Below are positions 10,081-56,279 of a DNA stretch of 64,000 bases, in pieces. Each line of letters opens with the position of its first letter. The first letter of the stretch is position 1. Source of the stretch: Mobula hypostoma (lineage: Eukaryota); the NCBI RefSeq assembly GCF_963921235.1, contig NC_086097.1:148182001-148246000 (forward strand), read 5' to 3'. The notes beneath the pieces are model-generated. The model saw nothing but the letters and a program-made list of their open reading frames with translations. It did not search any database and was not told where the DNA came from. Position numbers and translations under genes: made by a program.

Positions 10081-12888
10081 TAGTCCATGAGCCAGGACCC
10101 CAAATTTGGGCCACTGGTATCATCTGGGGGGAATAATTCTTATAGCGATTTTTGGCAAAGTATACACCCCTAGTGCTAGAAAATATGTTATAGTATTGCT
10201 GTGGTGGTAGCTTTCTGTGAGGGGGACTGGGAGTTGTACCTCCATGCTATAAGAACCATGATCCCATGGTGCTTTGCCTATGATAAGATGAATTATTCCA
10301 GGTACCTGTACCCTTACTTTGCTCAGATGATGAACCTCCTAGAGAAGAATCCTTCTGTGTATGAGGCCTTCAAGACAGGCCTATTCTCAGTGCAGCTGTC
10401 AAGTAACAACCCCTTTGGGCAGATCCCTGTGGACCAGGCTATTGAAGCCACAGTGAACAATGACACACAGACTCCTGGAGGCACATCACAGTTCAGCCTG
10501 AATGCTGGGGCTATCAAGTGTTACTACATAACAGCTGAGCACCGCAGTGCCTTCCTGGGACAGTTAAGGGAGATGGTGCAAGGCAACAAATCAGAGCTTT
10601 GTCATGCGGAGCTACAGCGGCCAAGAATCCAGAAAGATGAGGAAGCAGTTTCAGCAGTGGTTAGCCCCATACATGAATGGGTCAACCCATTTGCAGAGAA
10701 GCAGGACCTCATCAGCTTTTCTACGGCAAAGGCAGTACCCAAGGACATTGCCTCCGACCTGATGAAGGCATGTAAGATTGATGAGCAATGCTATGCAACT
10801 TTCAAGGATGGGAGACTGGAGGAAGACCCACCAGCAAAGAAATTCCATGACCCAATGAAAACCAACAAGCTGAAAACATTCAGTGATACGTGTAAGAAGA
10901 CAGGTGAAATCAAATGGGAGGGCAATCTTCTTGAAAGCACACAGGTCTTTGTTTGGATGCATCATAGTGATGGCACAAAGGCGTGGTCTACGTATGGAGG
11001 ATATCCTTTCTCATCCCCTTGGACCATTGCCCTGAGCCCTGTCCAAACCAGAAGGTTTGCTGAGAAAGACAAATAAAGCTACTTTAGCCACAACCTTGCA
11101 GAAAAATGTAGAAGTAGAAGAGCAACTCCCAGGAAACTCTGCTACATGCTACGTGGTTGATGGAATGAACTTGGTCCAAAGAGTGAAAGGTGATCAAGTT
11201 ACTTACAGAGATGTTGCCACAACAGTTCTGGGTATGGCTCTAAGGGAAGGCAGTCAGAGTAGCAGAATAGATGTTGTGTTCGACACATACAAGGAGAACT
11301 CTATCAAGAATAGTGAAAGATCTCTATGGGGTGAAGAGACTGGTCATGAGTTACAAGTTATCACAGGCACACAGATGGTGAGGCAGTGGAGGAGCTTCTT
11401 GACCAAAGTCAGTAACAAAAATAGTCTCATTAGCTTCATAGTCCATGAATGGAGGAAGGCGGAGTACAGAGCAAAGCTAGTGGAGAAAATTCTGTAAGCA
11501 ACTGTGAATGACAAGTGTTACAGAATCACATCTCAAGACAGTGAGGAGGTGTCAGCTCTTCAGTGTCAACAAGAAGAAGCAGATGGCCGCCTACTTCTCC
11601 ATGCTGCCCTCGCCACAAGAGAAGGATACCAATCTGTAGTGATTTGCTCAGAAGACACAGATGTCTTTATCATGTCTTTAGCATTTGTGACAAGATTGAA
11701 GCCCCATTGTTCCAGAAGTGTGGCATTGGAACCCGTACAAGGCGTGTAGACATCAGGAAGGTTGCTGCCACTGTTGGCATAGAGGTTTGTAGGGCTCTCA
11801 TTGGGTTGCACGCATATACAGGATGTGACACTGTAAGCGCTTTTGCAGGCAGAGGGAAGACAAGTGCCCTAAAACTTCTGACCAGCAACAGGGAAACTCA
11901 GGACACATTCTTAGAGCTTGGTCAGGAATGGGACCTGTCCTCAAAACTGATGGACAAACTGGAAGCATTTACATGTCTCCTGTATGCCCCAAAAAGCATC
12001 GACCACCAAAGTCAACGAGCTCAGGTATCCCCTTTTCTGTGCCAAAAAAGATGAAATCAAAAGTCATCAACTCCCATCTTGCAAGGACTGCTTAACAAAA
12101 CAAGCACAGCGAGCCAGCTACCAGGCTGGTATATGGAAAAGATGCTTGGAGAAGGACCAAGTGCCAAGCCCTGTTGGCAGAGGATGGAAGGTGAGAGAGA
12201 AGAGGAAGCTGAACAATTGGTGGTGCACTGGATGGAAGGCCAGCCAGCTGCCGTCCTGGATCTACTGGTCTGTAACTGTTCAAAATAATGTTCACTCGCA
12301 AGGTGTATGTGTGTTGCAAATGGCCTCAGATGTACAGACGTGTGTAGTCTGGCAGACTGTGAGAACCAGGCATCCACCTCAGAGTGCGGAAAGTTCAGAT
12401 GAAGGTGTGGAAGATGTGGAAGACTTGGAAAATTATTATGATTATTAATAGGTTATGAAAGTATGGAAAGCAGTCTTTGATTAAATATATTCATTTTACA
12501 ACCAAATGAGGCCTAGGTTATGGTCGTGTGAAACCCCACCTTTGAATTATTGTACTGTAATTCAATGTGCTATGACAAAAGCTTAAGATTGTTTTGATTT
12601 GATACAACAATATGGAAAAAAATCATGACATTGAAAAAGCTCCAGGAATCTCTCCAAATGAGTTTTTTTTTTACCTTTTGGGGGGTGAGGTAACATTTTC
12701 TGCTGTACTGATGTTAATATGGAACATATACAAAAAGTGATTACAGTACTTCTTTGAAGTAATAAAGCTACCACTGGTGTAATGCTATCACATATTTTCT
12801 AACTTTAGAGATGTATACCTTGCCAAAAATCACTATGAGCATTATTCCCCTCAGATGGTATCGACCAACCCTACTGGCTCACGGACTA
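10081..12888 (+). mobile_element. Academ (AcademX-type) DNA transposon, copy 1, retains 3' half of coding region
   Basis: TAG...CTA termini; about 125-135 bp imperfect TIRs (10081-10214 / 12765-12888); inferred 3-bp TSD AAT (7907-7909, displaced by the CR1, and 12889-12891); encodes transposase C-half, XPG-like nuclease and Cys-rich tail. Confidence 0.85.
10218..12448 (+). pseudogene. Academ polyprotein C-terminal half (transposase end, XPG/FEN1-like nuclease, Cys-rich CXC-like finger), frameshifted
   Basis: PWCFAYDKMNY, DQAIEATVN; nuclease acidic motifs VVDG, VVFD, EEAD, SEDTDVF and H3TH-like TGCDTVSAFAGRGK; terminal CNC..C..C.C....RCTDVC...C; broken across several ORFs. Confidence 0.85.
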
Positions 12889-12993
12889 AATGTGGTTATA
12901 CTTGCAGCTTAAGACATAAAACTAGTACGTTAACCCACATTCTTGTAAAATTCAACCCATTTTTCCACTCTCTGCTCACTCTATGCAGGAGCA

Positions 12994-13890
12994 ATGCATC
13001 TAGTCTGCTGTCATAACAACAACCTCCCACTCAATGCCAGCAAGACCAGAGAACTGACAGTAGACTTCAGAAGAGGGAAACTAGAAGTCCATGAGCCAGT
13101 CGTCATCAGAGAATCAGAGGTGGAGAGGGTTAGCCACTTTAATTTCCTGGGTGTTACTATTTCAGAGGACCTGTCTTGGACCCAGCAACTAAGAGCAATT
13201 GAGAAAAAAGCACCACAGTGCCTCTTTCCTTAGGATGTCTGCAGAGATTCAACATGCCATTTAAGCTTTGACAAACTTCCATAGATGTGTAGTGGAGAGT
13301 GTATTGACTGGTTGCATCAAGGCCTGGTATGGGAACACCAATGCCTTTGAGCAGAAAATCCTACAAAAGGTAGTGGATTCGGCCCAGTGCATCACGGGTA
13401 AAGCCCTCCTAATCATTGAGCACATCTACATGAAATGCTGTTGTAGGAAAGCGGCATTCATTATCAAAGATGCTCACCACCCAAGCCATGTTCTTTTCTC
13501 ACTGCTGCCATCAGGTAGAAGGTACAAGATCCTCAGTACTCACACCATCAGCTTCAAGAACAGTTACTAACCCACGATCATCAGGCTCTTGAACAATGGG
13601 ATTAACTACACTCACATGCCCATCCATTGAAATGATCTCACAACCAATTATCTCACTTTAAGGGCTCTTTTATCTTGTTATTTCATGCTCTTGATATTTA
13701 TTGCTATTTATTTACACTTTCACCTGCATTTTGTTGTCTTCTGCACTCTAGTTGATCTTTCACTGATCCTGTTATAGTTAATATTTTCTAGGTTTGCTGA
13801 GTATGCCTTCAGGAAAATGAATCGCAGGGTTGTATATAGTGACATACTGTATATGTACTTAAGTAAGAAAATTTACTCTGAATTTTGAAT
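12994..13890 (+). mobile_element. Rex1/Babar LINE 3' fragment
   Basis: LNASKTRELTVDFRR, ERVSHFNFLGVTISEDLSW, VESVLTGCIKAWYG, LLPSGRRY. Confidence 0.85.
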
Positions 13891-14199
13891 TTTTGCTATT
13901 CATGTTCATTTTATGGTTTCTGGTGCTTGAACTTTTCACCAAAGGGAATAGTTTCTCTGTATCTACTCTATTTGTAGCATTCATAATTTTGAATATCTCT
14001 ATTTGATTCTTGTGTAGTCTTTCAACCTGACATGTTCCATGAAGAAGAATTTCAGTTTTTCCAGTCTTTCATAACTGAAGTCGCTCATAGAATCATTCAG
14101 CACAGAAGTAGCCCCTAGGACCCATCTTAACTGTGCCAAAGTGATGCTCATATTCACTAATCCCATTTGCCTGCATTAGGACTATACCTCTGTAAGAAC

Positions 14200-15640: not shown

Positions 15641-15644
15641 AAGA

Positions 15645-16751: not shown

Positions 16752-16886
16752 TGCAACATTTTCAAGCAACACACATGAAAGTTGCTGGTGATTGCTGCAG
16801 GCCAGGCAGCATTCACCAGCAACTTTTATGTGTGTTGCTTGAAATTCCAGCATCTGCAGATTTCCTCCTGTTTGCAACATTTTCAA
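16752..16886. mobile_element. Penelope-tail hairpin insertion with 14-bp direct flanking repeat
   Basis: 31-bp inverted arms 16761-16791 / 16813-16843; TGCAACATTTTCAA at 16752-16765 and 16873-16886; sequence matches Penelope tails at about 2700 and 57280. Confidence 0.8.
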
Positions 16887-19519
16887 TTCCCTAATCCTGC
16901 ATCTCCATTGTATCTACAGTATGAGAATGAATAAGGCAAATGCTTTCTTAATTTCTCTTTCGTTTCCTTGCATTTCATCTGGACTTGGTAAATTATCCAC
17001 TTGAAGTACCTCCACTTTCTCAAATGATGGCTTGTCTAGAATCTCTTCCTTTATATGTTCCTTTACACTAACCCTACCCTGGTCCATTTTATTCTCCCCA
17101 CATTCCCTTCTTCTTCCCCCGCTCTCACTCCCTCTTCCCAGATTTCAGCACTTACTTAAGAGCAGGGGCCAATTAATCTCCCAACCCATCCATGTTTGTG
17201 ATGTGGGGGGAAACTGTTTAACCAATTTAATTTAACCAATTTCCCCCTGGGATCAATAAAGTATGACTATGACTATGACTCACTGAAGAGCCTGGAGGAA
17301 ACGTGTGGTCACAGGGAGAATGTGTAAACTCCAAATAGACAGCATCATAGGTAAAAGGAAACATAAAAGAGAATGCAGAATTCTCCAATAAGTAACAAGA
17401 GATTGGTGAGTACAGTCAGGGCCAATCACTGCAACTGTAGTTTGACTAACTGCATCATTCTTCACTCCTTTTTTATTTAGTTAATGATCCACATAGCACC
17501 TCTCAGTTTCTTACTTCTCCTCTTTGATGGTGCTTTCCTCAGGCCAGAGTTGTCCTCATCCTGTTGAAACTGGCCCCTCACCAGCTGACCATTTTATTTT
17601 GGTTCATATCATTTTCCATATCGATGGTTAATGTCATGATACTATTACTGCTGTTCCCCAAATGCCCCCTCACCAATATTTGCTATACATGGCTTTCCAC
17701 ATTGCTCATGTCTACTTCTTACCAATCCAGACTGGTATAAACAATAGCTATTTAAAGGAACTTGTATAGATGAAGGAGTAGGTACCTTCTGTTTGACACT
17801 ACTCTGGATCTGAAACACATTTTTCAGAAGAACAATTTTTTTTCACTTGATAAAATCAAATATACTCAAGGTCCAATTATGACCAAAAGAGAACATTTCT
17901 CTCAATGGAAATCTACCATAGTTGGCAAAGTTGGTTAAATCTTAGACGGAATTGTTGCGGATGAAGCGGAAACCATCCTGTTGCTAAACAGGTGGGACTA
18001 ATTTTTACTTCAGATAATTGGGGGAAATGTCTGATATTGGATTAATTTCTGTTATCTATATCTCTGGGTGTTTAATTCTGTTGACTTCAGATGTATGATG
18101 ACTATGTACAAAATCAATTTGTGGCAGCCTCAACTCAAGCACAATGAAAGCTACAACGGAAAAATATCTGTATGAAACGGACATTGCAGAGGATTAAAAA
18201 AAAACATTTTAGAAATTGAACCAAGGAGCACAATTTCACTGGATTAGCTAAACGTTTAGAGAGTGGCCCCCAAAATCAGAATTGTTGAAGGGGACATTCA
18301 TTTGCAAGACTAAACGAGGCAACAATATCTGATAAACAATAAGAGTAAGGAATTGACAGTGGTAAGAGAGAAAACTGAGAAGAAAAAACATTAAAGAAAA
18401 CCACAATTGGAAGCGTGAAGCATTCTCAGAGATAACTTCTGATAAATGTACATTTCATGTGGAGTATTGTAGAAAAGTAATTGAATTAAAAATCTATAAT
18501 CTTTACATATACCCCTCATCCATTTAACCAGGAAACACGTGGGGTGAATACTTAAGTGGAGTTAAGTTTGACATGCATTGAGGACAGAGGAATTCTGAAT
18601 CATTATGCTTGATTGCTCTTTCTCTCATTTCCTTCCACTCCCCCTCCCTACTCTAAATCTCTCTGTCTCTTCCTGTCTCAGCAACTCTTTATCAGAGGAT
18701 GTCACCTTGGGAAATATTTTACAAGTTGTATTTTGCACTAGATATATATTTTCAACACCGGTACCAAATGTAGCGGGAACACCATGAACAAATATTCCTA
18801 AATAAAAGAGAATAAGTAATACCACTTATCAAGCAAAAGTAACTTTGCTTTCTGTGAAATTAATTTCACAATGAGTAATCTCATTGCATGGCACTTGAAA
18901 TCTCTCAGCCCTTCACTTCCTGAAAAAAAATTAAAAATATAGACAACATGTCAAATGTGGTTCTGCAAGTTACTTCTGTTGGGTTAGGCACAGTGTTTGA
19001 AATCTAAGTTCAAAGCCATCACAAGTGAAAAGGTAACAATCGTGCAGTCACATTCCAATTGCTTACTGCATAGGTCCAATACACAAAACCGGCTTCAAAC
19101 TGGTAACTAATCTAGGGGTCACCATTGCCAAAAATGTGTGAGTTGTGTTTGAGGCAGCTTCTCTCCCATAGGTTTACACCTATGACTTGGAATCATAAGT
19201 TCAAAAATTAGGAGCACATTCTTCTGAGATGCTGATGAACAGAGGAGTTGATGTAGAACGTTTATGAGAAAGCTGGAGGAGATTTGGTAGATGTATAATG
19301 ATGAGGGCTCTTGACAGAGTTGAGAATGAGAGGCTGTTCTCTTTGATGGAAGAGTGAATGATTATATGTCACAGGTGTAAAATAAAGAGATTAAGAATGA
19401 TGAGGAAAAACATTTTCATGCAGCACGTGGCTAGAATTTGAAACGCATCGCCTGCAGATATGGTGGAACCAGTTTCCAATTGAAGATGTAAAGATACAGT
19501 CAATAAAAAGTTAAAAGTA

Positions 19520-19820
19520 AAAGTTATAAGTTATCACTCAACTTCACCCCATCACTGAACTATTCCCACAACTTATGGGCTCACTTTCAAGGACTTTTCA
19601 TCTCATCTTGCGATTTTTGCTTATTGATTTATTATTATTATTATTTATTTTGTATTTGCACAGTTTGTTGACTTTTGCACACTAGTTGTCTGCTCTGTTG
19701 GGTGTGGTCCTTCATTGGTTTATATTATGGTTATTGCATTTTGAGTATGCCTGCAAAAAACACATATAAAGGTTGTATATGGTGAGATATATGCATTTTT
19801 ACTTTGAACTTTTGAACTTT
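19520..19820 (+). mobile_element. Rex-type LINE 3' UTR/tail
   Basis: cccacaacttatgggctcactttcaaggac...tttactttgaacttttgaactttga; similar to tails at 34675-35125 and 62600-62830. Confidence 0.7.
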
Positions 19821-20830
19821 GAGAAAGAACCAGGAAGTAGAATTTTCCAATACTAGGAGCGAACAATGGATTAAATGGCATCCTTCTGTGCTGTAACAAC
19901 ATCAAAAATACCATGGCATTACTTTGGTATAATTAACCTGCATTCACCAACAACTGACAATATTTCTTTGGTCTATGTGAGTATGAGATAAGACAAGAGC
20001 AAAAATGGCCAATTGACATGAATTGTCAGAGATCCAACAAACGCAAATGCAGGGAAGTTCCAACTAATCAATTGCCGAAGAGGCTTTCTTTCTATGCTAA
20101 TATCAGTTAGCTAAAGATCATTTTCATGGATCTTTGGAAACCACACAGATGGTGTCATTAGTAAAAGCATGTGCTTAGATCCTCTGATTACTATAAGCTC
20201 AGGATTCAACAGCAAGAGTAAACCAAAAATGTTCTAGTATTGGAAATGTTTACACAATCTTATTTAATGAAAGAAGATGCATGAATTTTGACAGTGGTTC
20301 AATGGGCAGTCGACAAGAATGACAGCAAAATGGCCTAATCCTGCTCCAGTGGCAGTGCTGAAGTGGTGCTATAACATCAGCAGAAATTACAATAGCACCA
20401 CCATGAAAATAACTGAAATTTGACATACAAATTGCAGCTGCTTTCTCTGTATAGTTTTGAATACAGCTTGTTTCCCCAGTTGATCTAGTGAAACAGTGCC
20501 CCCAATTACCGTAGCACCCACACAGCAATACAGTTATAAACTCTGTGCTGGTCTAAGGTCAGATCCACCCTACACTTCTGCTTATCCGTTCATTGTCAAT
20601 GTCTTGCCGTTGCTGTCCTCAGATCAGTTAAGGTGATCTAAGATCACTTAAGGTGGTGATGTCACTCACTCTCACTCACGTGAGAGATTAATAGTACAGT
20701 ATACATACATTGTGCAGAATCCAGGCGCAGATCCATGGTCTCGTGAGACTAACTGATGCCACACACACACACAGTGCTTTTACAAGCTAGCATGGGCCTG
20801 GCATGTGCGTTACTTTCGCTGGCGTGAAAA

Positions 20831-23212
20831 ATGGATCAATTTTTAGTGAGAAAACGATCTCATCCAGAGGAATCAGTGATGTTTCAGCCTGAGCCTGTCT
20901 TAATTGAAAGTGATATGCAGAAAGAATTAAGTGGGGATGAGGATGACAGCAGTTCATGGAAAGAGTGTGAGGGCGAAGTAAAGGAACAAGAAATGGAGCG
21001 GAATTGGAAGAGAACGTGGATGAAGCTGCTGTTAGTGCTAGTGTGCTAGTGGGAATACTGTTAGCGATGTTAGCCAGCAGCCTGAGGAAGGACCCCGTTG
21101 GCCAGCATTGAAAATGTACCTTTCGCAACAGTTTGGCGATCAGCAAAGGAGTTTTATTCGTGCCTGGTTTGACCTGTACTCCTGACTGGAATACTCAATC
21201 ATGAAAGATACTACGTTCTGCTTCGCATGCAGGCATTTCCTGTGTGGAGGACATGGGTTCCATTCTGACTCTACCTTCACTGTCACCGGTTACCGCAACT
21301 GGCGGAAAGCTACAACAGCTTTCAAAACCCACCATGTAAGTGTAGCTCGTAAGTTTGCTATGGAGACATGGGCCGAATTCAGATTGAAAAAACAAGACGG
21401 TTCAAGATTGGGAAATATGCTTGATAAAGGACATGCAAAGATTGTCCAAGAAAATCATGAGTATATGAGAGCAGTGGTTGAGTCTCTACGCTATATTGCG
21501 CGCCAAGGCATTGCCCAGCGAGGACACCAGGAGAATGATGGATCTGGCAATAGAGGAAATTTTGTTGAGTTGCTCAGTATAATTGGGTAGTTTGATAAGA
21601 CTGTAGCTAAAAAAATAGAGGACAATCCTGGAAATGCAAAAAACACCCATCACGATATCCAAAATGAAATTAGCGGTATTATGGCAGATATGATCAGACG
21701 TCAAATAAGTGCAGAAATCAAGGAGGCTGGACATTTTGCCATCATGGTGGACGAAAGTAAAGACTTGAGTAAAAAGGAGCAAATATCAGTGGTGGTGCGG
21801 TATTTGAATAACAAAACAGTGCTTGAAGAATTCTTGCACTTCACTCCAACAGAAGAGTTGGACGAAGAGTCACTTCTTAAAAGCATTGAACAGACATTCG
21901 CCCAGTGTGTTATTGATAAGAACGTGTGTATAGGTCAGTGCCATGACGGGGTGGCTGTGATGTCCACGTGCAATAACGGGGTACAAGAGAGGTTCAGGAA
22001 AGAGGTCCCACAGGCATTATATACACACCGCCATGCTCACAGACTTAACCTTGTTTTAGTGGATGTTGTGAGCAATGTACAACAAGCGGGTGAGTTTTTT
22101 GAAACTGTGCAGCTGCTTTACAATTTCTTTTCAAACTCTGTTGCCCACGATCTTTTCACGAAGAAACAGAGAGAACTGGAATCAACTGCACAGCCTGTGG
22201 AGTTGAAGAAATTGTCAGATACACACTGGGCATGGCGGTATACAGCTTTGTGGACTATAAGGAAATCACTCCCTGCCATTCTAGCTACACTACAGGATAT
22301 TATGGGTCAACCAAATGCACGGAGGAAAACGGAGGCCAGAGCTGTAAATGGACTGATTGACGAGCAGTTTGCTTTACTTCTCACTCTGTTTGAGGATTTA
22401 TTCCAAGTCACCAAGTTCATGTCAGACCAGCTACAATCTCCCAGTTTGGAGCTTTCATCCGCAGTGGACTTGGCTCAGTCTGTTATCGATGCACTCTCAG
22501 CAAAACAGGGAGAGGAATCATGGAGTGAAATTCAGGTAAGAGCTATGGACCTGTGCGTCAAGGCCGGTATACAGAGCAGAACACATGAAAGGAGACAGGC
22601 CCAGCCACCCCGCCACCTACATGGTTTTGTTGTGGAGGCCCAAACCGAACACACACCTGTCACATCCTCTGATCTTCATAAGAACTGTTTCTATCTGGTT
22701 ATAGACAGACTTCTAACTGAAATGAAAAGACGGTTCTCAATTGAGACTGGGGGTGTTCTGAGTGGAGTCTCAGCATTGAGTCCCAAACACAAGCTCTTCC
22801 TAGACAAAAACTGTCTTTGGCCAGTGGCCCAATGCTATGGAGTGACTGAAGTGAACCTGACTGCAGAACTACATCAGGTTCGGCGTCTGCTGGAAACAAA
22901 ACAAAAGCAAGGACAGACAGTGAATGACACAGTGGAATTTCTAGCTCTAATGAGACCCTACCGCGATGCATTTATAGATTTATACAAACTGATCTGCATA
23001 TCACTGACTCTGCCTGTGACATCTGCCTCATGCAGAGTTTCTCTTGCCTCAGACGCCTCAAAAACTACCTAAGGAATAGCAGCAGCAATGCACGGAACAG
23101 CAAGTTGGCCCTGTTGGCCATAAACAGCCGGAGGACCAAGGCACTTGATATCCAGAAAATCATTGATGCTTTCGCCACCAATCACAACAACAGACGGATT
23201 GTGCTTCTCTGA
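20831..23212 (+). pseudogene. hAT transposase pseudogene
   Basis: FCFACRHF, GNFVELL, IMVDESKD, GQCHDG, HAHRLNLV, SDTHW, LTLPVTSASC..SFSCLRRLKNYLR; frameshifts near 21040 and 23035, stops at about 21184 and 21588. Confidence 0.93.
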
Positions 23213-23632
23213 AAACGTCAGTGGCGAGTGCAGTTGATTTTTTCAAAATTTGGGCCTAGACTAACGCTGATTATAATTATTATTTTGTGGTGAATACCCC
23301 ATAGTCCTTATGTTTCCTGCAAATCCTAAAATATAATATTTACTGTTATTAAGCCTACTGGTTTTGCTTAGACTCCCAAGCGGTGATTCTGTTGATTTTT
23401 GTTTTAAATTCAGTACGAATTACTTGAGGAATTGCATGGTCAGAGTACGATTTGTCCAACTCCTGGTAAAGCCTTGTATCTGTTGTTTGCCTTATTTGAC
23501 TTTAATAGTGGTGTATCCTTTGGCATTATCTGTCTATGTAATGCGAATAGCAGTGGACATTGTGGGTTAGTGTTGTGTTTTTCAGTTGAAAAGCACGCAT
23601 TTGACGCTGATTGCGGGATTGGTGCATGATTC

Positions 23633-23847
23633 TGTGGTAAACCATATATATATATATAGTAACTGGGTTAACTGTCTGGACACGCCCCTCTGCTCCTCCC
23701 ACAAAGCCCTGAATAAAGGTGATTTTGCCCTGCCCCCCCTCAGTGCAGGGCAGACACTCAGCATGCTGGGAGTCATATTTTACTGCGAATAAAAGCCTTT
23801 CAGTATTTACCCTACTTCAGCCTCTTGGAGTAATTGAAGGTGCATCA
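23633..23847 (+). mobile_element. Solo LTR (Gypsy-like) inside the hAT 3' region
   Basis: TG...CA termini, 215 bp, AATAAA signals, flanks GATTC/GACTC (4 of 5 match). Confidence 0.7.
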
Positions 23848-24211
23848 GACTCACGTTGCGCGCTGTGGGTCGGCTGGCTCTGTTGGTTTGTTTGTTTATG
23901 CTCTGTGTCGCCCGGGTTGTCTCCGATGCTGTTGACACTGTCACAGTTCACTTCTATATTATATTTATCAATTGCTGTTGCTTGTGAATCAACAGAGGCA
24001 TTTATAGTAGGCATATAATGCTTGAAACTGACTTTTGAATGCCACGCATCTGGCCTTGCGAATACATATTACCATACAGTATGTCCCTCAGCACCATCAC
24101 TGAATAATTCAGCCCCTCCGTAGCACCAGCAAGAAAAAAATCTTTGGCGCCGTCAGTGTCCTGCTCCTAATTCTTACGGTTTTTTTAATGAATCTTTTCT
24201 TCAAAGCAGTT

Positions 24212-24455
24212 TTCTTCAGAGAGTGGTGAATCTGTGGAATTCTCTGCCACAGGAAACAGTTGAGGCCAGTTCATTGGCTATATTTAAGAGGGAGTAAAAT
24301 ATGGCCCTTGTGGCTACGGGGGTCAGGGGGTATGGAGGGAAGGCTGGGGCGGGGTTCTGAGTTGGAGGATCAGCCATGATCATAATACATGGCGGTGCAG
24401 GCTCGAAGGGCCGAATGGCCTACTCCTGCACCTATTTTCTATGTTTCTATGTTTC
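24212..24455 (+). mobile_element. CR1 3' end, same subfamily as 25132-29666
   Basis: Nearly identical to about 29430-29666; (TTTCTATG)n tail. Confidence 0.9.
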
Positions 24456-25131
24456 TATTCCTTCTCCTCCTCGAATTGAATGCTTGTTTTGAGAGTCTAG
24501 CAAATATGAAAAGATCTAAACACAAGGAAAGAAGCATGGATACAGGAAGACACTGTCTGAGAGTGGTGAAAGAAGACACTGATTCTGATTCTGAATGAGG
24601 TGCTGGTAAATGGAAATAAATTAGGCGGGTGATTGTAGTCAGCATGTACATGATTGGCTAAAAGATCTGTTTCTATGCATTATACTTCCAAGATAAACCA
24701 TGTCTAAATTCTATGTTTCAATTGCGTCCTTACCCAGCCAATCAACTTGCTCTGTAATATTTTTGCAAATAGGCATTTTTCAAAGGCATGCCATTTGTTG
24801 CATTCTGGCTTTCTGTATTAATCCCACTAGAGTGCATAACACTTCTCCACACTGAGTTTCGTTTGCATTTTGTTGTTCATTTCACCTTTTTCCATTTAAT
24901 TATAAATGTCCACTTTAACAATCCTCTTTACTTTCAACTTTGCTGGTAACTTTCATAACAGCTGCAAACTTTTTAATACAGTTATTTCCACAAGAATCTA
25001 GATCAATTTCAAACTGAAAGGGGGTGTACTCAAAGTTAACTGTGGAACACTAATCCTCAACAAATGCTCAATACATTCAACTTTATAATATTAAGTTTAC
25101 TGTTTTCTAAATGTTCCCACACCAATAGTCT

Positions 25132-25432
25132 AGTCTGAGTGGGAGTGCCGAGAAAGAGATTTTTGAAATTTTCGTTATTTTTTTTCTCCAACGGCTTTCT
25201 GAGAGGCGGGACTGCGCAGGCGTGTGACGTCGGGCAGTGCAGCGCGGCAGATTTAAAAGGGCAGACATCCTGCTTCGGGTTTGATTCGAAGAAGGAGTCT
25301 GAGAGTCTGAGTGGGAGTGCCGAGAAAGAGATTTTTGAAATTTTCGTTATTTTTTTTCTCCAACGGCTTTCTGAGAGGCGGGACTGCGCAGGCGTGTGAC
25401 GTCGGGCAGTGCAGCGCGGCAGATTTAAAAGG
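25132..25432 (+). promoter_or_regulatory. Tandem 172-bp CR1 5' UTR monomers (putative internal promoter)
   Basis: 25132-25260 repeats essentially identically at 25304-25432; each unit has GGCGGG, TGCGCAGGCG, TGACGTC and TTTAAAA motifs. Confidence 0.7.
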
Positions 25433-25594
25433 AACAAAGCCTCATAGAGCGGGCAGCGTAGTTTGCAGGTGGCGGAGTGAGCCGGGAGCAGAGTGAAGAC
25501 TTAAGGGCTTCGGCTCACCGGGCTTAGGCGGAAGCGGGCGAGGCGAGGAAGGTTTGACATTCATTTTCTGTTGCTATTTGAGGAGAGGGGCATT

Positions 25595-26530
25595 ATGACT
25601 GTGAGGGCAGTTTGCTGTTCTTGGTGTCGGATGTGGGCGGCCCTGGAGTCTCCAAGCCTCCCGGACGTCTACATCTGCGCCAAGTGCATCGAGATGCAGT
25701 TCCTAAGGGACCGCGTTACGGAACTGGAGCTGCAGCTCGATGACCTTCGTCTGGTCAGGGAGAGCGAGGAGGTGATAAAGAGGAGTGGAAGGCAGGTGGT
25801 CACACCGGGGCCACGGGAGGCAGACAAGTGGGTCACGGTTAGGAGGGGGAAGGGGAAAAGTCAGGTGATGGGGAGTACCCCGGTGGCTGTGCCCCTTAAC
25901 AACAGGTACTCCTGTTTGAGTACTGTTGGAGGGGACAGCTTACCCGGGGGAAGCGACAGTGGCCCTGCCTCCAGCACAGAGTCTGGCCCTGTAGCTCAGA
26001 AGGGTAGGGCAAGGAAGAGGAGGGCAGTTGTGATAGGGGACTCGATAGTAAGGGGGTCAGATAGGCGATTCTGTGGACGCAGTCCAGAGACCCGGATGGT
26101 AGTTTGCCTCCCTGGTGCCAGGGTCCGGGATATTTCTGATCGTGTCCAAGATATCCTGAAGTGGGAGGGTGAGGAGCCAGAGGTCGTGGTACATATAGGT
26201 ACCAATGACATAGGTAGGAAAAGGGACGAGGTCCTGAAAGGAGAATATAGGGAGCTAGGAAGGGAGTTGAGAAAAAGGACCGCAAAGGTAGTAATCTCGG
26301 GATTACTGCCTGTGCCACGCGACAGTGAGAGTAGGAATGCGATGAGGTGGAGGATAAATGCGTGGCTGAGGGATTGGAGCAAGGGGCAGGGATTCAAGTT
26401 TTTGGATCATTGGGACCTCTTTTGGTGCAGGCGTGACCTGTACAAAAAGGACGGGTTACACTTGAATCCTAGGGGGACCAATATCCTGGCAGGGAGATTA
26501 GCGGGGGCTACTGAGGTGACTTTAAACTAG
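25595..26530 (+). CDS. CR1 ORF1p: zinc finger/coiled coil + SGNH esterase (311 aa, uninterrupted)
   Basis: CxxC..CxxC then a leucine heptad; SGNH blocks GDSIV, PGA, HIGTND, DGLH. Confidence 0.9.
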   Translation: MTVRAVCCSWCRMWAALESPSLPDVYICAKCIEMQFLRDRVTELELQLDDLRLVRESEEVIKRSGRQVVTPGPREADKWVTVRRGKGKSQVMGSTPVAVPLNNRYSCLSTVGGDSLPGGSDSGPASSTESGPVAQKGRARKRRAVVIGDSIVRGSDRRFCGRSPETRMVVCLPGARVRDISDRVQDILKWEGEEPEVVVHIGTNDIGRKRDEVLKGEYRELGRELRKRTAKVVISGLLPVPRDSESRNAMRWRINAWLRDWSKGQGFKFLDHWDLFWCRRDLYKKDGLHLNPRGTNILAGRLAGATEVTLN

Positions 26531-29500
26531 AATGGTTGGGGGGTGGGAATCAAATTAAAGAGGCTAGGCGTGAGGAGGTTAGTTCACAACAGAGGGATGG
26601 GAACCAGTGCAGAGAGACAGAGGGGTGTAAAGTGAGCGTAGAAGCAAAAAGTACAAAGGAGAAAAGTAAAAGTGGCAGGCCGACAAATCCAGGGCAAGCA
26701 TTAAAAAGGGCCACTTTTCAACATAATTGTATAAGGGCTAAGAGAGTTGTAAAAGAGCGCCTGAAGGCTTTGTGTGTCAATGCAAGGAGCATTCGTAATA
26801 AGGTGGATGAATTGAAAGTGCAGATTGTTATTAATGATTATGATATAGTTGGGATCACAGAGACATGGCTCCAGGGTGACCAGGGATGGGAGCTCAACGT
26901 TCAGGGATATTCAATATTCAGGAGCGATAGACATGAAGGAAGGGGAGGTGGGGTGGCGTTGCTGGTTAAAAAAGAGATTAACGCAATAGAAAGGAAGGAC
27001 ATAAGCCGGGAAGATGTGGAATCGATATGGGTAGAGCTGCGTAACACTAAGGGGCAGAAGACGCTGGTGGGAGTTGTGTACAGGCCACCTAACAGTAGTA
27101 GTGAGGTCGGAGATGGTATTAAACAGGAAATTAGAAATGTGTGCAATAAAGGAACAGCAGTTATAATGGGTGATACAATTATAACAAGCAGTTATAATCT
27201 ACATGTAGACTGGGTGAACCAAATTGGTAAAGGTGCTGAGGAAGAGGATTTCTTGGAATGTATGCGGGATGGTTTTTTGAACCAACATGTCGAGGAACCA
27301 ACTAGAGAGCAGGCTATTCTGGACTGGGTTTTGAGCAATGAGGAAGGGTTAATTAGCGATCTTGTCGTGAGAGGCCCCTTGGGTAAGAGTGACCATAATA
27401 TGGTGGAATTCTTCATTAACATGGAGAGTGACATAGTTAATTCAGAAACAAAGGTTCTGAACTTAAAGAGGGGTAACTTTGAAGGTATGAGACGTGAATT
27501 AGCTAAGATAGACTGGCAAATGACACTTAAAGGATTGACGGTGGATATGCAATGGCAGGCATTTAAAGGTTGCATGGATGAACTACAACAATTGTTCATC
27601 CCAGTTTGGCAAAAGAATAAATCAAGGAAGGTAGTGCACCCGTGGCTGACAAGAGAAATTAGGGATAGTATCAATTCCAAAGAAGTAGCATACAAATTAG
27701 CTAGAGAAAGTGGCTCACCTGAGGACTGGGAGAAATTCAGAGTCAGCAGAGGAGGACAAAGGGCTTAATTAGGAAGGGGAAAAAAGATTATGAGAGAAAA
27801 CTGGCAGAGAACATAAAAACAGACTGTAAAAGCTTTTATAGATATGTAAAAAGGAAAAGACTGATAAAGACAAATGTAGGTCCCCTGCAGACAGAAACAG
27901 GTGAATTGATTATGGGGAGCAAGGACATGGCAGACCAATTGAATAATTACTTTGGTTCTGTCTTTACTAAGGAGGACATAAATAATCTTCCAGAAATAGT
28001 AAGGGACAGAGGGTCCAGTGAGATGGAGGAACTGAGTGAAATACATGTTAGTAGGGAAGTGGTGTTAGGTAAATTGAAGGGATTGAAGGCAGATAAATCC
28101 CCAGGGCCAGATGGTCTGCATCCTAGAGTGCTTAAGGAGGTAGCCCAAGAAATAGTGGATGCATTAGTGATAATTTTTCAAAACTTGTTAGATTCTGGAC
28201 TAGTTCCTGAGGATTGGAGGGTGGCTAATGTAACCCCACTTGTTAAAAAAGGAGAGAAAAACCAGGGAATTATAGGCTGGTTAGCCTAACGTCGGTGGTG
28301 GGGAAACTGCTAGAGTCAGTTATCAAGGATGTGATAACAGCACATTTGGAAAGCGGTGAAATGATCGGACAAAGTCAGCATGGATTTGTGAAAGGAAAAT
28401 CATGTCTGACGAATCTCATAGAATTTTTTGAGGATGTAACTAGTAGAGTGGATAGGGGAGAACCAGTAGATGTGGTATATTTGGATTTTCAAAAGGCTTT
28501 TGAGAAGGTCCCACACAGGAGATTAGTGTGCAAACTTAAAGCACACGTTATTGGGGGTAAGGTATTGGTGTGGGTGGAGAATTGGTTAGCAGACAGGAAG
28601 CAAAGAGTGGGAATAAATGGGACCTTTTCAGAATGGCAGGCGGTGACTAGTGGGGGTACCGCAAGGCTCAGTGCTGGGACCTCAGTTGTTTACAATATAT
28701 ATTAATGACTTGGATGAGGGAATTAAATGCAGCATCTCCAAGTTTGCGGATGACACGAAGCTGGGTGGCAGTGTTAGCAGTGAGGAGGATGCTAAGAGGA
28801 TGCAGGGTGACTTGGATAGGTTGGGTGAGTGGGCAAACTCATGGCAGATGCAATTTAATGTGGATAAATGTGAAGTTATCCACTTTGGTGGCAAAAATAG
28901 GAAAACAGATTATTATCTGAATGGTGGCCGATTAGGAAAAGGGGAGGTGCAACGAGACCTGGGTGTCATTATACACCAGTCATTGAAAGTGGGCATGCAG
29001 GTACAGCAGGCGGTGAAAAAGGCGAACGGTATGCTGGCATTTATAGCGAGAGGATTCGAGTACAGGAGCAGGAGGTACTACTGCAGTTGTACAAGGCCTT
29101 GGTGAGACCACACCTGGAGTATTGTGTGCAGTTTTGGTCCCCTAATCTGAGGAAAGACATCTTTGCCATAGAGGGAGTACAAAGAAGGTTCACCAGATTG
29201 ATTCCTGGGATGGCAGGACTTTCATATGAAGAAAGACTGGATGAACTGGGCTTGTACTCATTGAAATTTAGAAGATTGAGGGGGGATCTGATTGAAACGT
29301 ATAAGATCCTAAAGGGATTGGACAGGCTAGATGCGGGAAGATTGTTCCCGATGTTGGGGAGGTCCAGAACGAGGGGTCACAGTTTGAGGATAGAGGGGAA
29401 GCCTTTTAGGACCGAGATTAGGAAAAACTTCTTCACACAGAGAGTGGTGAATCTGTGGAATTCTCTGCCACAGCAAACTGTTGAGGCCAGTTCATTGGCT

Positions 29501-29575
29501 ATGTTTAAGAGGGAGTTAGATATGGCCCTTGTGGCTACAGGGGTCAGGGGGTATGGAGGGAAGGCTGGGTTCTGA
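26521..29575 (+). pseudogene. CR1 ORF2 (APE endonuclease + RT) with several frameshifts
   Basis: NARSIRNK, GITETWL, YRPPN, LDWVL, SDHN; RT GVPQGSVLGP, KFADDTK; frameshifts near 27740, 28255, 28652 and 29072. Confidence 0.93.
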
Positions 29576-30145
29576 GTTGGATGATCAGCCATGATCATAA
29601 TAAATGGCGGTGCAGGCTCGAAGGGCCGAATGGCCTACTCCTGCACCTATTTTCTATGTTTCTATGTTAATATTTGCTCCACATAGCCTGCAACATTCCC
29701 ATGTATGTCTCTTAACCAATCCAGACCAGTTTAAGACTATCATATTTCAAATGTCAAATTATATCTTTAATAAATGCATAACTCTCTTTGGTATTCATTT
29801 ACTTTGGACTTGAAACTATTATGGAAAAACAAGACATTCGCAATAAAATTAAACCTTCTTAAGGCAGAGTACTTAATGGACTGTTGGTGTGCAATTGTCT
29901 ATCCCTTTTTGGAAACAGGAATAGCATTATTAATCACCTATCAACCAATACCACTCCTGTTCCAAATGGTTGTTAAAAAATAGTTCCGTTGTTATTTCAA
30001 ACATTGCATCATTGAACAACCTTAGAGTAGCAATATAATCAAAGATTGAAGGTCGATATATCTATCGCACAACTTTAATTATACACAAATTGCCACCGCA
30101 GATTTCACAAGAGAGCCAATAATCTAGAATTTGTCAGAATTAAAA

Positions 30146-38746: not shown

Positions 38747-38747
<1 letters not shown>

Positions 38748-38793
<46 letters not shown>

Positions 38794-44716: not shown

Positions 44717-45195
44717 TCAAAGGTTCAAAGGTTCATTTATTATCAAAGTATACAACTCTGAAATTCTTCTTCTCCAGATAGCCAGGAAACCAAGAAAGAA
44801 AAGAAAGGACGGCAACACGATCATCACCAACCCCCCTCCCAATCGCTCTTCTCCACACAAAAAAAACGAAAACAGTACAGGCACATTGACCCCCAAATTT
44901 CCCTCCCCCACACGTAATAAAACAAGAAAGATTGGGTGAAAAACACAGAATATAAAAAAAAACACATTAAGACTGAAAGAAAAGACTATAGTCCAAGTTC
45001 ATTTACAAAATGCAGAAAACCTGGGTAACATTCTTCGGGCACCATGGCGGCCTCTCCTCTCTCTGACAGCAGAGCGATCCCCCAGCGATCAAAAGGTAGG
45101 TAGCCGGTGCTCACTCTTTGCATTTGCCTCGATATTTCAATCTCCCTCGTCGCTTTAATTGGCGAACAATGGAAGCTTTAATCCGTGAGATGGGG
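44717..45195 (-). mobile_element. Non-coding SINE-like element with Rex-type tail
   Basis: Tail aataaatgaacctttgaacctttga; 5' part shares motifs with 48170-48828; interrupts the CR1. Confidence 0.6.
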
Positions 45196-45307
45196 TTGTA
45201 TAAGACATTCATGAGGCTTAATTTGGAGTATTGTAGGTAGGTCACCTACCTACCTACAATACTCCAAATTAAGCCTCATGAATGTCTTATATAACCCCAT
45301 ATCATGG
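45183..45307. repeat. About 60-bp-arm inverted duplication (hairpin, 5-nt loop)
   Basis: 45183-45242 is reverse-complementary to 45248-45307 with 3 mismatches. Confidence 0.92.
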
Positions 45308-51189: not shown

Positions 51190-51500
51190 TATGATCTTTT
51201 CCTTGTAATTTCTATCACACAGTTCCACAGTCTGGAATATTAAAGTTTATTGCTCAGATTTCAGTCTAATACATTTAATTCCCAATCCTCAAATCTGCAG
51301 TGGCTTTATTTATTAGGGTGAAGTTGTCTTTAATACTGTAAAATATCCTTTTCCTTTATGAACTTTTCCTTGTGTTTTTTTCTATCACACAGTTCCAAAG
51401 TCTGGAATATTAATGTTTACTGCTCAGCCTTCAGTTTGACTCTTTTAATCCCAAGTCCGCAAATCTGCAATGACTTTGAGGGTGAAATTGTCTTTAGTAA
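51190..51500. repeat. Old local tandem duplication, period about 167 bp
   Basis: tctatcacacagttcca.agtctggaatattaa.gttta.tgctcag...aaatctgca..gggtgaa.ttgtcttta occurs twice. Confidence 0.85.
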
Positions 51501-51887
51501 AACCACCTTGTTTCTTTCCCCACAGACACAGCTTGAGTTACTTTGTAATTTGAGTATTCTGGTTTGTTTTGTATTTCTGGCATCAGGAATTGGAACCAAA
51601 ATTCATTTATCATTGTCATACACTGTATACTAAAGTGCAGTGGAAAGATTTATGCTTGTATTCTGTCCAGATCACTCCATACAGAAGTACATCAAGACAG
51701 TATAAAAGAAAAACAGAAGGCAGGATATAATGTTACAGTTTCAGAAAAAAGTACAATGCAAGGAAATTGGAAAATTGGTAAACTGCTTATTTAGTCCGTG
51801 AGCCAGTAGGGTTGGTCGGTACCATCTAAGGGGCATAATGCTCATAGTGATTTTTGGTAAGGTATATATCTCTACAGTTAGAAAATA

Positions 51888-53233
51888 TTAGATTAGGTTC
51901 AACTTTATTATCATTGTGCCGAGTACAGATACAAAGCCAATGAAATGCAGTTAGCATCTAACCAGAAATGCAAAGAATAGTGTTATTTAGATTATGAAGA
52001 CACACAGTCCTCTTTTATTGTCATTCAGTAATGCATGCATTAAGAAATGATACAATATTTCCTCTGGTGTAATACCACAAAACACAGGACAGACCAAGAC
52101 TGGAAAAACTGACAAAACCACATAATTATAACATATAGTTACAACAGTGCAACAATACCATAACTTGATGAAGAAGTCCATGGGCACAGTAAAAGTTCAA
52201 AGTTTCTCAAATGTCCCACATCTCACGCAGACGGGAGAAGGAAGAAAAACTCTCCTTGCCATGCCGACCACAGTCCGACTCTGAGTCATCCGAAAAGTTC
52301 GAGCTCTGATCAGCTCTCCGACACCGAGTACTGAGCGCCATCTCTGTCCGAACAATTCAACCTCAACCTCGGTCGCCAACAGCAGGCAAAGCCGGGGATT
52401 TTGAGGCTTACCCTCCGAAAGATTCCTGACCACGCAGTAACAACAGCAGTGAATGAGCGTTTCAGAAATTTCTCCAGATGTTCCTCTGTGCTTTCACATC
52501 CATTCTACATCAAATCAGAATTGTCCACGGCCCCTATTTACAGATACAATATCATTTTTCATCGGAGGGCTGCACACGCGCAGGCGCGCTGCTCTCTCTC
52601 CTCCTGCCGAAATAACCAAATAAAAATTAAGTGCTACGGCACACAAATATGAAAGTACTGAGACAGTACAATATGGGTGCAATACTGATTAGTGCTGTGA
52701 TGTGAGGTTCAGCAGGGTCCCAGCCTCAGGGAAGAAGCTCCTCCTGTGCCTGCTGGCGCGCGAGTGGAAGCTCCTGTAGCGCCTACCGGATGGGAGGAGA
52801 GTAAAAAGTCCATGGTTAGGGTGAGATGCATCCTTGATAATGCTTTTTGCCCTGTCCAGGCAGCACTTATGGTAGATTTTCTCAATCGTGGGCAATTGGG
52901 TGCCGATAATCTGCTGGGCAGTTTTAGCCACATGCTGGAGTGCTTTGCAGTCCGATACAGGACAATTGCCATACCACACTGAGATGCAGTTGGTGAGTAT
53001 GCTCTCAGTGGTGCAGTGGTGAAAGTCCATCAGTATCCTGGGACAGAGGTGAGCTTTCTTGATGCTCCACAGGAAATGAAGGCACTGTTGTGCCATTTTG
53101 ATCAGGATGGAGGAGTTCAGGGACCAGGTGAAATCCTCGGAAATGTGGACACCAAGGAATTTGAAGCTTGATACACGCTCCACTACAGCTCCTTTGATGT
53201 AGATGGTGACATGAGTGTGGCTCCTAGTGTGAT
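51888..53233 (-). mobile_element. Rex1/Babar LINE 3' fragment inserted in the Academ TIR
   Basis: ORF 52689-53183 ERVSSFKFLGVHISEDFTW..ESILTNCISVWYG..LLPSGRRYRS; the TIR resumes at about 53234. Confidence 0.9.
51988..52607 (-). mobile_element. Non-coding SINE-like element nested in the Rex tail
   Basis: CpG-rich head (gcagcgcgcctgcgcgtgtgcag), tail gacaataaaagaggactgtgtgtcttcataatct; interrupts the Rex 3' UTR. Confidence 0.6.
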
Positions 53234-53267
53234 ACGTGATAGCATTGCACCACTGGTAGCTTTATGT

Positions 53268-55845
53268 GTGCTCAGCTGTTATGTAGTAACGCTTGATAGC
53301 TCCAGCATTCAGGCTGAACTGTGATGTGCCTCCAGGAGTCTGTGTGTCATTGTTCACTGTGGCTTCAATAGCCTGGTCCACAGGGATCTGCCCAAAGGGG
53401 TTGTTACTTGACAGCTGCACTGAGAATTGGCCTGTCTTGAAGGCCTCATACACAGAAGGATTCTTCTCTAGGAGGTTCATCATCTGAGCAAAGTAAGGGG
53501 ACAGGTACCTGGCATAATTCATCTTATCATAGGCAAAGCACCATGGGATCATGGTTCTTATAGCATGGAGGTGCAATTCCCAGTCCCCCTCACGAGAGGC
53601 ACGCAGAAGCCCAAGTCAATGTATGATATCTACCATGTCAATGTATGATATCCAGAATGTGGATAGCTCTCCATTGTTGTGACGGAGGTGTTCCAGAAAG
53701 TCTGTCCACAGGGTTATCAGCTCAGCTAAGAGTGGACTTTGCAGCAGATTGTTCAACTTCTGTTAGTTCAAGTCGCTGACCATGTCGTTCACATGGTCTA
53801 AAAATGATTTGATCATCCCACTCCTCTCTGGAACGTTGTCCTCAACCCACGGTGTGATCTCTGCCCATGTGAGTCTCATGAGTGCTTCATAGATGTACTT
53901 GTGGACCCTGACAGCATAACTGTAGTGTTTACCATCAAGGACTCCATTGAAGGACCCCTCTGTGATAATTCCAGCCTCTATGCATACATCCTTTAGACCA
54001 GCATCCTGAAATCGCTTTCCTAGGATGGCTGAGGCATTACATATGGTATGGGATGTCCCCATCCTGAGAAGAATGTTGGAGAAGTGCTCTTTGTGCTTTC
54101 AGGCAATCTCAGTAGCTTTTGCATAGAGTGCTTGACCCATGACTACCACAATTGTTTCTAGATGAAGTTCCTTCCTGATTAGCTCTGATTGGTTCAGGAT
54201 TTCAAATACTGTGGTCAACTCTGTGGCTGGTGAGTTGAAGGTTGGCAGATACCCAACAATGTCCTGTGAGATTGGTTCTTGGTCCCTGGTGCTGATATTA
54301 AAACCAGTCCAGCTTGGGATTATCTGATTCTCTGGATCTGTTTTCCTTGTAAGTGTCCACACCAGGTTCTTCTTTCAGGCAAGAAGAGCCGCTTCCTTGG
54401 TTTCCTGCACACAGTGTTCCCTGTTTGGGAGAGGCTGTGGGCCCACATGTGCACCTGCTATATATACTTCCAGTTCTTGGTCCTCAACGGTGACTGATCT
54501 CTGCTTCAGTTTTTCACTGTGAGGAAGCTCAGCTCTTGGCAGATGTGGTCCATAGACATTTGCCTGTACCACTATGCCATTGACTCTATGTGATGTACTC
54601 TTTCCAGTGAGAGTTTCCTCAAGTCTATCGATATTGTCCCATGCAAGGTTGGTGAAGACATGAGGCCTGATGGAGGCTGGAAGTACAACTCTCTGGTTGG
54701 AGGCTGGTGCCAGCTTTTGGAGACACAGAGCAGTGTTGTTCTCTTCAAGTTGGGAGTAAGGCACCCCATGCCCAAGCCTGTTCAGTGTTTGAATGAGCTC
54801 AGTGTTATCCCTCAGTGTTTTTGCTGCATAAGGAAGTAGAAGGTGCTTCTGTGGTTTATGTTGACCACATGTCACAGCATATATTATATCCTGATTAATT
54901 GACTGAACCAGAGCAGTGACCCTCTGTGTTTGAGCCTTGGTGTCAGAATTTCCAGTGAGCAGTCCAACAAGAAGCCGCTCTAGTTGATCCGGTATGGAGG
55001 TGTGAGCACTATCTTTCACATCAGATGGATGGAATGGCCAGGAAGTCACAGTCTTCTCCTGTCTAATGATTGATCTGATATGTGATGAAATTTGATCTAT
55101 GATCTTGTCGAAATTGGTTGCCTTGGCCCTCCAAACTCTGAGTTCCCTCTGTAGAGTTTGATTTTCCAAGACAGCGTCCCTAAATGATACACTTTCAGAA
55201 ACCATTAACAATTTTCCTTTGTCATCTGGAAATATATCTACTGAATTGCCCAGCTCAGTTTCCTATGAAGGTGCTTCCTTGTAGAGTCTTGCAAGGAGTG
55301 TAACTCCACCAGATAGCATGAAAGATTCAAGTTTCGTGACCAGAGAAGTGACTTGTACAATCATCTTGTTGGGTATGATATCAGTTCTGATATACTTGAA
55401 AAGGGTCTTTATAGGCTTCCCTTTCAATCCTTTTATATAGTTCATCACCATCTGTTTCATCGTCATTCTCTTTGTACTCAGGTTCCTTTTTCTTGATTCT
55501 GGTATAATCCTTATAGCACGAAACATGATAGTGAGCCTCTGCAGCAACTATGTCTCTGCTTCTTACTGCTAGAATCTCTTCATCTTCCTTTTGGGTTGCA
55601 CATTTCCATAGTGTTTGGTCAGCTCTGAGTTGTACAGCTTGTGTAAGCTTTTCACTTGACTTGGAGCCCTTCAGAAATTTCACCTTATTACAAAAAATGC
55701 AGATTTGATCATACACCCTTGCTTCTGATGAAGATCTCCTACTTGCCCTTCTTGATGTATGGGTATTCTCATCAGCTTCATCAGTAATGCTTTCCTTGGC
55801 TTTCCTTTTCAGAGTCTCTAAGTCTCTCTTCATGGTGAAGAGGCT
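53268..55845 (-). pseudogene. Academ polyprotein N-terminal/transposase half, frameshifted
   Basis: CIFC..DIVAAEAHYHVSCY, AWDNID, PSWTGFN, YLPTFNSPAT, VMGQALYAKA (DQ-type motif mutated), RMGTSH, GKHYSYAVRVHK, PWCFAYDKMNYARYL. Confidence 0.85.
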
Positions 55846-56279
55846 TACACACAGAAAGCTACCACTGCTGCAATGCTATCACATATTTTCTAGCACTAGG
55901 GGTGTATACCTTGCCAAAAATCACTATAAGAATTTTTCCCCCCAGATGGTACCGATGGCCCAAATTTGAGGTCCTGGCTCATGGACTAATTATTGTACAT
56001 GTACCTAGGTGCAAGGACCACAATGAGGTAGACTGGGAGATGAAGTGTTCATCCTTCAGCACACAAGAGGTCCATTTAAGAGTCTGATAACAGCAGGATA
56101 GAAGGAAACCATGAGTCTAGTTTATAATGCATGCTCACATACTTTTGTATCTTCTACCTGACAAGAGGGGGAGAAGAGAAAATAACCAGCGTGGAAGGAG
56201 TCCTTGATTTTATTGCCTTTTTCCAAGGCAGTGGGAAGTGTAGACAGAGGCAATGGAGGAGAGGCTGATTTACTTATTT

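Follow-up and report, generated by a model that had tools for sequence, protein, structure and literature searches.

The Drosophila P element carries a THAP domain, makes an 8-bp target site duplication (TSD) and is not known to have a fused FEN-type nuclease. Academ transposons, in the part of the literature available to us (PMC10045372), fall into two lineages: AcademX has a nuclease and a TSD of 3-4 bp, whereas AcademH has a helicase and a TSD of 9-10 bp. Here, two Academ copies were studied in one 64-kb stretch of DNA (hereafter the window), copy 1 near its start and copy 2 towards its end. Both elements are AcademX and both are non-autonomous. They are very probably dead deletion derivatives of a single family, the products of separate insertions 39 kb from each other and in opposite orientation, and the complementary halves of one gene that they carry would reflect a coincidence of deletion sites.

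Two deletion derivatives with complementary gene halves

A first-pass annotation of the window had placed two inverted Academ copies at these positions, with copy 2 holding the gene as far as YYITAEH and copy 1 holding it from EGDWEL, and this description proved correct. The features are listed below (TIR, terminal inverted repeat; LINE, long interspersed nuclear element). Coverage and residue numbers refer throughout to the natural homolog P0001 (1569 aa).

10081-12888, + strand: copy 1, an internally deleted non-autonomous AcademX element of 2808 bp, whose left TIR runs directly into aa 825 and what follows; TSD absent
10081-10219, + strand: copy 1 left TIR, about 135-139 bp, bounded internally by a deletion junction that shows the 3-bp microhomology GTG
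10217-12448, + strand: copy 1 coding remnant, aa 825-1569 of P0001, with the end of the DDE domain (E900 kept), the 5' nuclease and the Cys-rich tail; 5 frameshifts and 3 stops
11072-12210, + strand: FEN/Exo1/XPG-family 5' nuclease domain, about aa 1110-1490 (approximate limits); acidic active-site motifs kept, R1193 changed to Trp
12270-12370, + strand: Cys-rich CXC-like tail (approximate limits); in homologs Pfam TCR matches it weakly, under the cut-off
12764-12888, + strand: copy 1 right TIR, about 125 bp, matching the copy 1 left TIR at about 81% over 97 bp
51792-55988, - strand: copy 2, a doubly deleted non-autonomous AcademX element of 4197 bp with the 3-bp TSD AAT
51792-51888, - strand: copy 2 right TIR, outer part, from self-comparison
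51889-53236, - strand: 1348-bp insertion splitting the copy 2 right TIR, a 3' piece resembling a LINE, itself containing another high-copy element of about 630 bp; joints at 51888/53237 and 51989/52619-52629
53237-53265, - strand: copy 2 right TIR, inner part, bounded internally by a deletion junction that follows aa 932/933
53268-55851, - strand: copy 2 coding remnant, aa 73-932, with the N-terminal region and the RNase H-like DDE core; D477 and E900 kept, 3 frameshifts and 3 stops
55850-55988, - strand: copy 2 left TIR, 139 bp; its inner edge is joined straight to codon 73, the leader and aa 1-72 being lost

Both copies begin with TAGTCC and end with GGACTA, and copy 2 is flanked on both sides by AAT, a 3-bp TSD. 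Self-BLAST of the window matched the left ends (10081-10219 with 55988-55850) at 91% and the right ends (12792-12891 with 51888-51789) at 94%. The coding overlap, predicted at about 325 bp, measured 326 bp at 97.9% identity (10217-10542 with 53593-53268; E 1e-158). The right TIR of copy 2 is found uninterrupted, with the joint 51888/53237, in contigs of two sequencing runs. At the left end of copy 1, the 3' end of a LINE abuts the first base of the element. We also considered a single element broken by inversion, which was rejected because both copies possess a pair of ends and copy 2 is flanked by a TSD. Trans-splicing of the halves and a split two-gene arrangement were rejected as well, since the homologs are single open reading frames (ORFs) and both halves are pseudogenes.

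Each copy was aligned separately to P0001, allowing for frameshifts. Copy 2 covers aa 73-932 with 699 of 857 residues identical (81.6%), and copy 1 covers aa 825-1569 with 607 of 738 identical (82.2%). Together they cover 1497 of the 1569 residues in collinear order, a union of 1497 codons that bears out the roughly 4.5 kb of joined coding sequence expected at first pass. This coverage, together with the presence of both TIR types and the 326-bp overlap, is what favours the further claim that the window by itself allows a near-autonomous element to be reconstructed. That claim failed, and we consider it highly improbable that the two copies would suffice.

The first obstacle is the missing 5' part of the gene. 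No tblastn match to aa 1-72 was found anywhere in the 64-kb window; neither copy retains these residues, among which are the start codon and 11 columns conserved at ≥95%. The two relatives of intact length (5447 and 5475 bp) have aa 11-12 at a distance of 525-535 bp from their left end, and a third related element has aa 8 at 340 bp, with coding estimated to start about 320-500 bp from the end of intact relatives. Copy 2 therefore lacks roughly 400-580 bp of leader and 5' coding DNA.

The second obstacle is decay. The reading frame of copy 2 shifts at three places (near 55401, 55292 and 55257) and is interrupted by stop codons at 54375, 54099 and 53763. In copy 1 there are five frameshifts, near 10897, 11685, 11995, 12192 and 12385, and three stops, at 11035, 11497 and 12288. 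The pair thus carries 8 frameshifts and 6 stops. Alignment A1 has 280 columns conserved at ≥95%, and 31 of these survive in neither copy, 11 because the N-terminus is missing. Among the losses is D644, the second catalytic Asp, which is Gly (codon 54135-54137) in copy 2, the sole copy covering this position. Likewise R1193, present in 109/109 homologs, is Trp in copy 1, the only copy that reaches it. The D644 lesion is not family-wide, since the Asp-restoring base at position 54136 stands at a depth of 211.7 out of 211.7 in contigs of sequencing run X1 and 2449.9 out of 2582.3 in those of run X3. Neither copy thus holds a complete ORF, the D-D-E triad is broken at D644 and the TIR of copy 2 is interrupted.

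Nor can the copies correct each other, because the overlap shares its lesions. At the 98 overlap columns where P0001 and P0093, an eel homolog, agree, seven differences are common to both copies, four are private to copy 1 and none is private to copy 2. Differences are rarer in the overlap than in the TIRs (7/326 against 18/236, Fisher p = 0.003), and the copies therefore share either an already decayed ancestor or a conversion tract. Just upstream of the overlap, copy 2 has a 15-bp duplication resembling a repair scar (about 53616-53650). Copy 2 may have undergone gene conversion or be of mosaic origin. Reconstruction would in any case add little because intact full-length relatives are already in public data, and these natural homologs (P0001 and others) make the role of the nuclease testable without it. 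The copies themselves are an ordinary pair of dead transposon copies.

Assignment to AcademX and folds of the encoded protein

The first-pass annotation gave TAG..CTA ends and a 3-4 bp TSD as Academ traits, the former on its own statement and not on that of a paper. The ends were found on both copies, and the TSD on copy 2 and not on copy 1. The ends of relatives were examined at 21 of 41 related loci, and 12 elements had both ends. All 12 have TAG..CTA termini and 11 have a 3-bp TSD, the exception being locus L020. The left flank of L020 is common with L017 and its right flank with L025, which marks it as a recombinant or a misassembly.

In the accessible part of its source (PMC5751038), the RNase_H_Academ profile opens with DNxD, continues with GK.T.H..NGI..Q and has DQ.L at 191-194. 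The homologs and copy 2 carry agreeing motifs, judged by eye in an unscored comparison of 66 of the 465 profile positions (1-40 and 169-194), the region of the third catalytic residue falling outside these. The 3-bp TSD also separates the family from AcademH, and Pfam found no helicase in P0001, which accounts for the union of the copies. The same TSD separates it from the P superfamily, and no THAP match appeared in Pfam scans of 12 homologs.

The two enzymatic domains were modelled with AlphaFold2. The DDE model of P0093 (601 aa), a protein 87% identical to copy 2, was built from a 92-row alignment and reached a pLDDT (model confidence score) of 85.5. Its best structural match was the P-element transposase (Z 9.8-9.9, root-mean-square deviation (rmsd) 4.4-4.5, 275-277 residues), the single match at Z ≥8 among 48,161 chains; retroviral integrases, ISCth4 (Z 6.1) and Hermes (Z 5.9) followed. 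The catalytic residues are invariant in the homologs, D477 in 92/92, D644 in 90/90 and E900 in 86/86, and H673 is present in 88/89. The DDE domain is, as modelled, RNase H-like and P-element/Hermes-like with a large helical insertion. The fold anticipated at first pass was therefore recovered, on a homolog. The Academ enzyme is predicted to work like a DDE enzyme of the P/hAT/Mutator group without being a P element. When solved-structure sequences were searched with the A2 profile, two matches appeared at E 0.32, both unrelated. Neighbours of the DDE part in the ESM Atlas are DUF6589 clusters. The Pfam family DUF6589 matches P0008 weakly at aa 623-859, and the Atlas neighbours of P0093 are strong; DUF6589 appears to be related to the Academ-type DDE core.

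For the nuclease, P0121 (486 aa) was modelled from a 109-row alignment with a pLDDT of 91.2. Seventeen chains matched at Z ≥8, all of them FEN/XRN-type 5' nucleases. Exo1 was first (Z 15.1, rmsd 3.7, 263 residues), and other matches included Xrn1 (13.7), T5 FEN (12.6), GEN1 (12.0), XPG (11.7, ninth) and FEN1 (11.4). Foldseek agreed on the 5' nuclease group (best E 9e-6). Thirteen acidic and basic residues, which we take to be the FEN active site and helical gateway, are kept in 106-109 of 108-109 rows. These results agree with the earlier reading of a transposase fused to an XPG-like nuclease with a PIN/FEN1 fold, the fusion being present in single-ORF homologs. On the model, however, 'XPG-like' is a loose label, as Exo1 and then Xrn1 rank above XPG. 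In the ESM Atlas the neighbours of the nuclease part were TCR clusters or clusters without a name; viral FEN/XPG clusters came up only below 0.9, which is a lead only. A homolog of the nuclease region, P0206, is annotated in a bacterial metagenome-assembled genome (Sedimenticola sp.) and is probably host DNA in the bin.

Several points weigh against reading the copies as dead members of one AcademX family. Copy 1 is flanked by GTC and AAT and so has no TSD. The Academ assignment is made from by-eye motifs, folds and TSD. Pfam placed no family above cut-off in eight Academ pieces or 12 homologs, giving weak hints of TCR and DUF6589. The folds are those of natural homologs and not of the broken sequence in the window, and Foldseek found nothing at E ≤0.001 for the P0093 DDE model. 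Finally, that the nuclease acts on the non-transferred strand or on 5' flaps after strand transfer is something we infer, and we hold it about as probable as its opposite.

Taken together, the AcademX assignment suggests the following scheme. The intact family would be about 5.5 kb long, with TIRs of about 140 bp and one ORF of about 1570 aa. Its single protein would have three parts, seen on homologs: the DDE domain (D477, D644, E900), the 5' nuclease, its acidic active site complete, and the Cys-rich tail. The DDE domain would nick the 3' ends of the TIRs and join them to target DNA with a 3-nt stagger, in keeping with the observed 3-bp TSD. FEN/XPG-family enzymes cut at junctions of single- and double-stranded DNA. 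The fused 5' nuclease may cut or trim the non-transferred strand, or 5' flaps, at such junctions, a role that would fit the short TSD of the nuclease lineage as against the long TSD of the helicase lineage.

Deletion junctions at the inner TIR edge

Three junctions, at copy 1 left, copy 2 left and copy 2 right, fall at a TIR position of about 136-142, at or slightly past the limit of left-right homology, and two of these three carry GTG microhomology. The first-pass annotation had not remarked on them. At the right TIR edge of copy 1 the 3' non-coding part is not shorter than in relatives. Joints were also sought in other sequencing runs, and all figures given here are among the 15 listed out of 66. 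On one side, eight of the 15 fall at 55848-55856; their other sides lie near 53549-53590 (five rows that may stem from one event), 53821, 54509 and 55021. None of the 15 joins coding to coding. Some joints have short sides (21-30 letters), and the inner TIR edge was defined without any intact left end of the family in view. The reference for the joint search lacked the sub-terminal segment, so that deletions starting inside it are invisible as clean joints. The inner-edge excess is partly ascertainment.

In the comparison loci one of 12 breakpoints, from six deletions, lies at the inner edge (the right side of L026; P about 0.13), a count that left out the deletions of L028 and L029, truncations and inversions, where there was no intact reference or clear junction. 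A related family in loci L012, L017, L019, L020, L025 and L022 has its own amplified deletion derivative, with reference position 3008 joined to 5022.

These junctions can be read in three ways. It is an even call whether the inner TIR edge is a true deletion hotspot of host repair, through abortive gap repair with microhomology joining. Here a TIR that is bound by transposase, or limited by homology, would fix one breakpoint, and TG/GTG microhomology would fix the join. The three window junctions and the eight joints with their four distinct partner sites point this way, as does precedent: in the part of PMC3814204 that we could consult, the left breakpoint of the Gnome miniature inverted-repeat transposable element (MITE) lies immediately after the TIR and mPing breakpoints cluster. 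Similarly, abortive gap repair is expected to give a terminal bias in what was available of PMC8277862. The cluster is less surprising because of the precedent in mariner MITEs. The segment missing from the reference, the use of 15 of 66 joints and the single inner-edge breakpoint in the comparison loci count against a hotspot.

Descent and ascertainment could also account for the cluster, and this we find possible while leaning away from it. One ancestral TIR-adjacent deletion would have been inherited or re-cut nearby, with selection for whole TIRs. The overlap being more alike than the TIRs, as expected of a shared decayed ancestor or a conversion tract, fits such a history, and five of the eight TIR joints may be variants of one event. 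A parallel is the Rhodnius mariner Rpmar17, for which the portion of PMC4678618 at hand describes repeated deletions around a first breakpoint. Descent leaves unexplained the symmetric junction at the copy 2 right TIR and the second deletions that restart within 9 bp of the same edge.

A more specific idea is that the element's own Exo1/FEN-type nuclease acts on the inner TIR edge, cutting the base of a TIR-TIR stem-loop or working within a paired-end complex, and that the junctions are its footprints. The junction-cutting habit of FEN/XPG-family enzymes favours this, as do the active site invariant across homologs and the inner-edge junctions on both left and right TIRs, to which L026 adds one at the right. 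The TIRs, however, are only about 75-85% alike and lie 5 kb apart, the comparison loci are without a clear excess, and nuclease-free mariner elements show the same pattern (PMC3814204). We regard such cutting as unlikely. If true, the derivatives would record where the poorly understood AcademX nuclease cuts, and its role could be tested from genomes (AcademX against AcademH) and in vitro. The breakpoint cluster is thus a lead on how derivatives form, and perhaps on the nuclease cut site. In our favoured scheme of independent deletion derivatives, the deleted copies would have arisen by abortive repair with microhomology joining and would have moved in trans.

Relatives, neighbouring elements and known systems

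A search with the longest copy 2 ORF found 191 homologs among 5600 candidates, and many of the 120 listed are single ORFs of 1530-1590 aa. P0001 is 80% identical to the query. In a tree of aa 460-810 with 41 rows (copy 2 and the first 40 of 88 homologs covering this region), copy 2 falls together with P0001 and P0093 (support 100/99), the terminal branches being 0.089, 0.063 and 0.029. P0093, the closest protein to copy 2 (87%, against 53268-54716), is annotated from the eel Synaphobranchus kaupii, and others are from a cyprinid and a hagfish. If the host is a cartilaginous fish, closeness to the eel element suggests horizontal transfer, and transfer among aquatic vertebrates is possible.

The exact joint of copy 1 (53590/55850) was found in contigs of runs X1, X3 (seven contigs) and X15. 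Summed contig depth in X1 was 17,000-18,600 in TIR bins, 7,200-9,800 in overlap bins, 104-1,720 in the rest of the coding part and 20 for a unique flank contig; this depth, which is not a copy number, fits an abundant copy-1-type subfamily. The copy-1 type may thus have amplified, its joint recurring in three runs, and the copies would then have decayed. Run X15 may, as a guess, be RNA, and no RNA dataset was listed as a carrier. Run X21 had 29 reads placed, and the Academ coding part received none of them. Searching with a 19-base TIR pattern found no match in viral contigs and four in prokaryotic contigs, taken as chance.

The window holds other mobile elements. A hAT/ZMYM-like transposase remnant lies at 20787-23072 (+ strand), with a 493-aa open stretch and DUF4371 matches; no TIRs were found for it in 19500-25600. 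A near full-length CR1-type LINE at 25057-29665 (+ strand) has a GDSL esterase ORF1 and an endonuclease-reverse transcriptase ORF2. A 129-bp direct repeat of 100% identity (25132-25260 and 25304-25432) lies upstream. A Penelope-like remnant at 57674-58642 (- strand) has a weak GIY-YIG match, and short near-perfect palindromes at 45183-45307 (91%) and 16760-16844 (89%) are possibly hairpin MITEs.

Our literature search returned no description of the window's AcademX family; Kojima 2020, which lay outside the search, could bear on the termini, the domain labels and the description. It likewise returned no paper on an Academ transposase with AlphaFold, the main Academ paper lying outside it. The fold comparison puts the Academ DDE domain nearest the P-element transposase and the nuclease nearest Exo1/XRN rather than XPG, which may already be in print.

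Among known systems, the Drosophila P element (PDB 6p5a, 6pe2) is the closest structure to the DDE domain, insertion included, at 9% sequence identity. The nuclease shares its fold and acidic active site with the Exo1/XRN/FEN1/XPG/GEN1 5' nuclease superfamily at 7-17% identity. Internal deletions with microhomology and one breakpoint right after the TIR are likewise found in Gnome/Elf/Goblin and mPing, as far as the consulted part of PMC3814204 goes; the derivatives here differ in being 2.8 kb long in the copy-1 form, in keeping coding DNA and in having several junctions at the same edge. AcademH, on the partial sources used, has a transposase of the same superfamily but differs by its helicase and 9-10 bp TSD from the 5' nuclease and 3-bp TSD found here. 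The closest match is the AcademX lineage of Academ (Kapitonov and Jurka 2010; Kojima 2020), which in the parts available to us has the same DDE domain and nuclease, 3-bp TSD, TIRs and catalytic motifs, and from which the window copies differ in being non-autonomous and decayed.

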